A stretch of 40,829 nucleotides of DNA, from the sequence record NC_028822.1, one strand, 5' to 3'. Below, in pieces: positions 25,596-25,682 of the stretch (the first letter of the stretch is position 1; every line of letters begins with the position of its first letter). The notes below the pieces were generated by a model. That model saw only the letters and a list, made by a program, of their open reading frames with translations. It was not told the DNA's origin and did no database searches. The translations under genes and the position numbers were made by a program. Origin of the DNA: Escherichia phage P483.

Positions 25596-25682
25596 CTACA
25601 GGAACGGACGCAGTGCGCCACAAACGATAATGACGATGACCAAGAGTGTCACCGGAAGTGCTTCACCAAAGAGCTTACGCAT
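25596..25682 (-). CDS. Small hydrophobic peptide between lysozyme and primase genes
   Basis: 28 codons, [38 protein letters not shown] 7 nt upstream; lies downstream of promoter 25733..25755. Confidence 0.45.

Follow-up and report, generated by a model that had tools for sequence, protein, structure and literature searches.

Genes 1.5 and 6.3 are established names in the annotation of T7-group genomes. Gene 1.5 of T3 and T7 is located downstream of the ligase gene in a slot between the promoters phi1.5 and phi1.6, and encodes 25-29 amino acids (aa) with an N-terminal helix, a proline-containing acidic tail and no basic residues. Gene 6.3 of T7, T3 and Klebsiella phages (DUF5516; phrog_11345 and phrog_5008) has its start codon within the 3' end of gene 6, preceded by an AAGGAG Shine-Dalgarno sequence (SD) at a spacing of 8 nt, is the last class II cistron before promoter phi6.5 and encodes one hydrophobic helix. 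A point mutation in T7 gene 6.3 had a measurable lysis phenotype with an altered lysis time, and close relatives were noted to show poor conservation of the gene (PMC2680503). A screen aimed at reducing the T7 genome did not recover gp6.3 as removable (PMC9825161). Ligase-deleted T3 (two lines) and T7 acquired destructive gene 1.5 mutations in parallel (Rokyta and colleagues; PMC2696425), and a screen from 2026 showed that T7 gp1.5 inhibits growth of E. coli in minimal medium, which is suppressed by stringent-like RNA polymerase alleles (PMC13483052). Here we describe three minus-strand open reading frames (ORFs) in the genome of Escherichia phage P483 (NC_028822.1; the whole stretch of 40,829 nt is called the window below): ORF B, which corresponds to gene 1.5, ORF C, which occupies the position of gene 6.3, and ORF A, a gene without a name directly upstream of gene 4A. 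We consider it quite probable that all three are genuine genes of the middle region (class II, DNA metabolism), each encoding a peptide that amounts to hardly more than one predicted membrane-spanning helix.

The ORFs had been proposed in an earlier note as tiny hydrophobic peptides with good ribosome-binding sites, and the coordinates, the strand and, letter for letter, the translations given there were reproduced (Table 1). In a survey of every ATG- or GTG-initiated candidate of 20-59 codons, 491 candidates were found on the coding strand, six of which had a strong SD, while eight were hydrophobic (mean Kyte-Doolittle value of at least 2.5 over 15 residues). Three candidates had both properties and these are exactly ORFs A, B and C, compared to 0.10 expected if the properties were independent, corresponding to a 30-fold excess. 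No small-ORF candidate with both a strong SD and hydrophobicity was found on the non-coding strand. The strong SDs of all three ORFs are spaced 8-9 nt from the start codon. Each ORF also contains a stretch of 17 residues with negative insertion energy, as expected for the single helix that had been predicted: the best 17-mers of ORFs A, B and C reached -1.7, -5.4 and -2.8 kcal/mol, respectively, against a median of +9.7 kcal/mol over the 491 candidates, only 2.4% of which were below zero. Insertion energies are Hessa-type sums over the best 17-mer, with the scale values of Hessa 2005. The flanking genes also place all three ORFs where the note had put them on the T7 map, at the 3.8/4 junction (ORF A), the 1.5 position (ORF B) and the 6.3 position (ORF C).

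Lack of conservation in relatives had been named beforehand as the result that would speak against the three ORFs. We compared the window with 26 Berlinvirus-type sequences, comprising IMG/VR loci, metagenome contigs, BA14 and eight other GenBank genomes; a metagenome scan contributed only about six new Berlinvirus-type contigs. The reading frames of ORFs A and B were intact in all 27 sequences, ORF B always with 26 codons and with its ATG and SD, and that of ORF C was intact in 25 of the 27. For the substitution test, each distinct allele was counted as one event and the neutral expectation was derived from the observed transition/transversion ratio. Synonymous events were in excess in ORF B (28/56 vs. 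a neutral fraction of 0.26, p=1e-4) and in ORF A (12/23 vs. 0.31, p=0.026), and none of the 24 replacements in the helix of ORF B led to a charged or polar residue, proline or a stop (p=0.016). The same holds for the 20 helix replacements in ORF C, for which 15% were expected to be of this kind (p=0.036; p=0.064 for the part outside the overlap with gene 6). The off-frames of the ORFs contain stops and showed no synonymous excess in the Berlinvirus-type set.

Comparison across genera was based on slots taken from 80 syntenic loci with the flanking genes as anchors. Among T7-, T3-, Przondovirus-type and other loci, 43 of 46 have a helix peptide behind an SD in the 1.5 slot; the 6.3 slot is filled in 39 of 40 and the slot before gene 4A in 26 of 47, the latter mainly in Klebsiella phages. 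In Kayfunavirus-type loci, the 1.5 slot is mostly empty and the 6.3 slot is filled in 8 of 20. All Berlinvirus-type loci have an occupant in the pre-4A slot, which is empty in T7- and T3-type loci. An AAGGAG at a distance of 8 nt precedes the 6.3-slot ORF in most other genera as well. The occupants in most other Studiervirinae genera sampled are short single-helix ORFs with little or no recognisable similarity to ORFs A-C. Over all groups, Berlinvirus included, the occupants belong to phrog_10145 and phrog_12128 in the 1.5 slot, to phrog_25193, phrog_32729 and phrog_13077 in the pre-4A slot, where Klebsiella phages also have unclassified helix ORFs, and to phrog_11345, phrog_5008 and phrog_28149 in the 6.3 slot. 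In-frame ratios of nonsynonymous to synonymous polymorphism (pN/pS) were 0.16, 0.12 and 0.14 for the three slots in Przondovirus-type sequences, with off-frames above 1, 0.24 for the Kayfunavirus-type 6.3 slot, and 0.40 and 0.58 in T7-type sequences.

Table 1. Features of the window that are relevant to ORFs A-C, in the order of discussion, with two further genes at the end.
Feature	Position	Strand	Basis and remarks
ORF B = gene 1.5, 26-aa peptide MLFLIVAIIVATFALVIIDDNCWPDC	28454-28534	-	translation; phrog_10145
SD of ORF B, GGAGG	28544-28548	-	9 nt before ATG 28534
Promoter phi1.5	28542-28564	-	promoter scan; annotated as phi1.5 in BA14
Promoter phi1.6	28434-28456	-	promoter scan; phi1.6 of BA14 overlaps end of 1.5
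ORF C = gene 6.3 (Berlinvirus type), 28-aa peptide MVAGTVAFVMFAIVAFAMVWAAFIAKSV, essentially one helix	18911-18997	-	identical to BA14 gp6.3
SD of ORF C, AAGGAG, inside 3' end of gene 6	19006-19011	-	8 nt upstream of ATG 18997
Promoter phi6.5, closing the 6.3 slot; class II / class III boundary	18860-18882	-	promoter scan; BA14 and T7 annotations
ORF A, 28-aa peptide, gene without name directly upstream of gene 4A	25596-25682	-	translation; phrog_25193
SD of ORF A, AAGGAG	25691-25696	-	8 nt upstream of ATG 25682; in all Berlinvirus-type loci
Phage-RNA-polymerase promoter TAATAGAACTCACTATGGGAGGA	25733-25755	-	promoter scan; +1 at ~25738
5'-terminal stem-loop GGAGGACC-GAAA-GGUUUCUCC with GNRA loop	25718-25738	-	RNA fold; start of ORF A transcript
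SD (AGGAG, 25593-25597) and ATG (25583-25585) of gene 4A	25583-25597	-	read from sequence; gp4A N-terminus MDMEEQQ
T7-family holin	626-832		PF10746, E=3e-31
Terminase-sized ORF	38092-39849

Sequence comparison identifies ORF B as a clear homologue of T3 gp1.5 (MWLILFAIVATLGLMVADDNIWPDC). Both match phrog_10145 among the PHROG profiles (E=2e-17 for ORF B and E=3e-16 for T3 gp1.5), and they share 56% identity over 25 residues by tblastn. The helix of ORF B comprises residues 1-18 and is followed by the acidic tail (three Asp or Glu, no Lys or Arg), in which D20, W23, P24 and C26 are invariant; the motif D-x-x-W-P-x-C is common to T3 gp1.5. In slot, size range and layout, ORF B agrees with gene 1.5 of T3 and T7 as described above, while the CxxxC pair of its tail (C22, C26) is absent from T7 gp1.5. 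The ORF sits between ligase gene 1.3, with the early terminator (TE), and gene 1.6, flanked by phi1.5 and phi1.6, and the order TE, phi1.5, 1.5, phi1.6, 1.6 that is annotated in BA14 is the layout of the window as well. Annotations of gp1.5 are also present in 285P, Kvp1, Yepe2 and Yep-phi. The transcript from phi1.5 begins at the gene 1.5 SD (5'-GAGGAACAACCUCAUG) with a leader of 13 nt, and the TAA stop of gene 1.5 supplies the first three bases of phi1.6. Both promoters carry TATGGAGGA at the start site (28532-28548 and 28424-28440, minus strand), and therefore transcription starts at the SD and leaves a leader of only about 13 nt ahead of the ATG of gene 1.5 or 1.6. If gene 1.6 is taken at its maximum length (from 28441), it begins within the promoter; its true start is probably the ATG at 28426, which would yield a product of 87 aa, as annotated in BA14.

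By position, ORF C corresponds to gene 6.3 of T7 and T3; it is not a detectable member of DUF5516. Its exact sequence is present in public protein collections as gp6.3 of Escherichia phage BA14 (YP_002003480.1). It overlaps the final 28 nt of exonuclease gene 6 (stop at 18970-18972) and ends 28 nt before phi6.5 as the last cistron ahead of this promoter, so that the start inside gene 6, the AAGGAG at 8 nt, the place at the end of class II and the single hydrophobic helix are all shared with gene 6.3 of T7, T3 and the Klebsiella phages. In contrast, DUF5516 proteins have 36-37 aa and end in a basic or amphipathic tail of about 12 residues (e.g. ...ARIIKSLHDTK), whereas ORF C has 28 aa and ends three residues past the helix, with AKSV or ATL as alternative C-termini that are exchanged by a 5-nt indel. 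Assignment to DUF5516 (PF17637) was rejected: ORF C gave no Pfam hit at E<=1, while gp6.3 of T7 and Przondovirus scored 6e-14 and 4e-19, hhalign yielded no alignment and the basic C-terminal tail is not present. Matches to Pfam, PHROG or NCBIfam models were lacking altogether, with no PHROG better than E=0.23, and a tblastn search with ORF C gave no match, presumably due to low-complexity masking. In the Y. pestis phages (Berlin, Yepe2, Yep-phi and others; about 34 records), gene 6.3 seems to have been lost from the entire clade by a deletion of 30 nt, and the clade also appears to carry a diverged pre-4A peptide (phrog_32729), as judged from the sequence inspected in one locus only (L015, ~16520-16560).

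ORF A, flanked by lysozyme gene 3.5 and primase/helicase gene 4A, is composed of a short basic N-terminus, one helix (approximately residues 8-24) and an RPFL tail. By profile comparison it belongs to phrog_25193 (E=3.1e-22, residues 1-28 on profile positions 1-28), a family restricted to Berlinvirus; tblastn found it in full length in 50 phage records, all of Berlinvirus type. Its counterparts annotated as 'unknown product' in BA14 (AS7_0018) and 285P (LXB_018) differ by one residue (V/I) and occupy the same place between the promoter after gene 3.5 and gene 4A. This promoter overlaps the last codons of the lysozyme gene, ORF A is the first cistron of the transcript, and BA14 and ETEP21B carry a promoter annotation at the equivalent site. 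In four homologues (L008, L088, L092 and L170), a tandem duplication of 12 nt (four codons) near the 5' end keeps the frame and results in a 32-aa form that begins with MR(N/K)LFGKLFGE... One of these, L088 (metagenome contig OERM01000059.1, 42,025 bp), has a lysozyme gene 99% identical to that of the window, yet it is a very close relative and not the same genome, because it carries the 32-aa form. The window is devoid of a 30-aa hydrophobic ORF (MMIIHEMGLYDLIYRLAFMLAMVYILTRKD, phrog_25602) that is found after the lysozyme gene in BA14, 285P, A7 and others. Its presence or absence corresponds to an indel of about 97 bp (window ~25700-25752 vs. L002 754-846 and L087 5242-5331), and a fourth tiny helix peptide is therefore variably present in Berlinvirus. 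Some Klebsiella (Przondovirus-type) phages (L058, L085 and L086, ~10300-10940) have three consecutive single-helix ORFs of 32-40 aa between the lysozyme and primase/helicase genes, with an SD detected for two of the three and none for the ORF adjoining the lysozyme gene.

Two other roles for the ORF A locus were considered and rejected. A holin was considered because ORF A follows the amidase gene, but its tail consists only of RPFL without a charged hydrophilic C-terminal domain, it matches no Pfam holin family and the window has a canonical T7-family holin elsewhere (Table 1). A 62-aa ORF on the plus strand (25584-25772) covers ORF A, but all identified genes and promoter-like sites are on the minus strand, which argues against an antisense gene.

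Several observations weigh against the interpretation of all three ORFs as genuine genes for membrane peptides. The pairwise and event counts were not corrected for phylogeny. In ORF A, the test for preservation of hydrophobicity (1/8) was not significant with too few events, and frame +1 gave a similar pN/pS, because exchanges among isoleucine, valine and leucine are nearly neutral in both frames. The similarity of ORF B to T7 gp1.5 is weak (pairwise hhalign P=0.003 over 18 columns with 50% identity, probability 10%), and T7 gp1.5 belongs to a different PHROG (phrog_12128); between ORF C and T7 gp6.3, no similarity was detectable. In the Y. pestis phage type (L015), ORF C lacks 30 nt and runs into a stop at codon 4, and in PcCB251 it has a GTG start and a frameshifting 1-nt deletion. 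Outside the overlap with gene 6, the synonymous events of ORF C were not in significant excess, neither in the 28-aa form (8/20 vs. 0.26, p=0.11) nor in the 27-aa form (4/13 vs. 0.29, p=0.54). All functional links come from T7 and T3 proteins, and literature searches found no ribosome-profiling or proteomic record for T7 1.5 and 6.3 or for the three ORFs. The toxicity of gp1.5 alone is not specific, because the 2026 screen scored 34 of 53 T7 proteins as toxic in minimal medium (PMC13483052).

ORF C is the weakest case of the three, and it might be a decaying or neutral remnant in Berlinvirus that remained open through close kinship of the sequences and through the constraint that gene 6 imposes on its first 28 nt and its SD. 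The missing significance of the synonymous excess, the exchange of the C-terminus by the 5-nt indel and the disruption of the frame in the Y. pestis phage lineage and in PcCB251 would be in line with such a remnant, as would the lack of Pfam or PHROG membership and of similarity to DUF5516. However, none of the 20 helix replacements introduced a polar or charged residue, proline or a stop, and an SD-preceded single-helix ORF occupies the 6.3 slot not only in nearly all loci of the mixed group (39/40) but also in 11 of 12 Berlinvirus-type loci. Furthermore, the occupants of this slot are under purifying selection in Przondovirus- and Kayfunavirus-type sequences (pN/pS given above), and the point mutation in T7 gene 6.3 has a measurable effect on lysis. 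We therefore consider the remnant explanation for ORF C unlikely.

For ORF A, an alternative function would be that of a translated leader that unfolds the mRNA and passes terminating ribosomes on to gene 4A, with a peptide that is functionless in itself. ORF A comes first on the transcript from its promoter, its TAG stop (25596-25598) is embedded in the gene 4A SD (AGGAG) at a distance of 10 nt from the ATG of that gene, and its last codons (RPFL) are invariant and overlap the gene 4A ribosome-binding site. A stricter version, in which the ribosome-binding site of gene 4A is sequestered until translation of ORF A opens it, was rejected since the fold shows no strong sequestration: the SD and AUG of gene 4A are predicted to be unpaired with a probability of about 0.47, similar to the AUG of ORF A itself. 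T7-type phages initiate 4A without an upstream ORF, with a gap of 71-75 nt in this place. Further points against the leader explanation come from the peptide. The version in Y. pestis phages (MYNLKEHVFVILICVLIIGGACLRPFL, phrog_32729) has a different N-terminal half but retains a helix of membrane grade, Przondovirus occupants of the pre-4A slot show a pN/pS of 0.12, and ORF A itself has a synonymous excess and its sole indel is in frame. A main function of ORF A as leader thus appears distinctly unlikely to us. Translational coupling of ORF A and gene 4A is possible according to the predicted fold but not required, and coupling and a function of the peptide are not mutually exclusive.

That all three are chance ORFs in intergenic DNA without coding function, as might be suspected since they are very short and since hydrophobic frames tend to stay open because few stop codons neighbour NTN codons (a substitution yields a stop with a neutral probability of 1-3%), is hardly credible given the 30-fold coincidence of SD and hydrophobicity on the coding strand only, the synonymous excess in ORFs A and B, the acidic tail motif of ORF B that is invariant across T3-type and Berlinvirus-type sequences, and the slots that are filled across genera with purifying selection.

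Returning to the interpretation as genuine genes, the sequences suggest that the three products are probably non-essential inner-membrane micro-proteins of the middle gene class. Their synthesis would fall into the middle period and be followed by insertion into the inner membrane of the host. There they may bind or perturb components of the membrane and serve as fitness factors that the phage can dispense with; roles as virion or replication proteins are not expected. An effect on host membrane processes, as raised in the earlier note, is plausible from the indirect literature on T7. Judging from the work on T7, the most likely output of 6.3 would be a modulation of lysis timing, and 1.5 could inhibit the growth of the host or affect DNA metabolism indirectly. 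ORF A may have translational coupling as an additional output, bringing ribosomes to the start of gene 4A (the gene 4A SD and the ORF A stop codon overlap). Since mutations in the T7 counterparts change lysis time or rescue ligase-deficient phage, ORFs A-C are cheap candidates for modulators of the host membrane or of lysis timing.

The constancy of the slots allows a more far-reaching proposal. Three positions (downstream of the ligase gene, upstream of the primase/helicase gene and downstream of the exonuclease gene) each harbor at least two to four PHROGs. It is conceivable that two or three fixed slots in most of the Studiervirinae genera sampled keep a single-helix micro-protein while the families turn over, with selection acting on a generic membrane-active property timed in the middle programme. 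If this were true, the set of peptides could tune the membrane potential and so the holin clock, for which the lysis-time mutation in T7 6.3 is the sole experimental hint. In a specific version, the tail of gp1.5 ('DD[ND]-x-[WM]-P-D') would be a membrane-tethered decoy for binders of the acidic tails of SSB, gp2.5 or gp4, and this would explain why knock-outs of 1.5 help ligase-deficient phages. We put this proposal, with its decoy version, forward tentatively and regard it as rather unlikely. The acidic tails of gp2.5 and gp4A end in phenylalanine (...EDEDGDF and ...EDDGKDF; 26651-26770 and 23873-23920, minus strand). The gp1.5 tail DDNCWPDC is acidic with an aromatic residue and proline but has no terminal phenylalanine, and its resemblance to the two other tails is loose and speculative. 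The pattern of slots in which the helix is kept and the sequence family replaced is the point of general interest beyond these known genes, which are of low interest by themselves.

The three genes are already known but under-annotated. The curated record of BA14 (NC_011040) lists all of them, as gp1.5, 'unknown product' AS7_0018 and gp6.3, and phage 285P lists the counterparts of ORFs A and B, so that the description 'unannotated' in the earlier note is correct for most automatic annotations but not for BA14. Its remark that such genes are easily missed was borne out: among public Berlinvirus records, a coding sequence (CDS) was called in only 11 of 50 records for ORF A, 15 of 42 annotated rows for ORF B and 6 of 36 full-length rows for ORF C, corresponding to 17-36% of records. 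Because CDS calls are missing from most records, comparative and pangenome studies of T7-like phages systematically lose these genes.

The window represents the genome of a T7-like podovirus from the genus Berlinvirus (Studiervirinae) and is complete or almost so. Every identified gene is on the minus strand, and compared to T7 the gene map shows a circular permutation. The closest records are phages Carena, 285P, BA14 and Kvp1 together with Shigella phage A7 and Yersinia phage WW1, and a scan of the minus strand for T7-type promoters gave 16 sites. Between the ligase gene and phi1.5, the window contains an ORF of 162 aa (28605-29093, minus strand) with an HNH_3 endonuclease domain (PF13392, E=7e-18), which is probably a homing endonuclease insertion and widens the gap to about 585 nt. 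Most relatives have about 170 nt in this place, and the gap in phage P1338 is as large as in the window or nearly so. An extra short ORF of 51 aa (MRLLTVLKTLATHRVTYKFLVVLAASIGLASSAEHIGELETLLCSLLTCVP; 37668-37823, minus strand) is located in the early region. It is preceded by an AAGGAG SD, has a moderately hydrophobic centre, overlaps no larger ORF and has no Pfam match.

Genes 1.5 and 6.3 are nothing new in kind, and together with ORF A they belong to a poorly understood class of phage micro-proteins. Bacteria contain small membrane proteins and type I toxin peptides, such as MgrB, AcrZ, Ibs and TisB, which like ORFs A-C consist of about 20-50 aa with a single helix. From phages, Gp11 of the staphylococcal phage PhiNM1 is reported to be a small membrane inhibitor (PMC11237401). 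As for MgrB, AcrZ, Ibs, TisB and PhiNM1 Gp11, ORFs A-C would be expected to act by inserting into the inner membrane and touching the lipid bilayer or larger membrane proteins there. None of these proteins is related in sequence to ORFs A-C, and the likeness is one of kind and not of membership.

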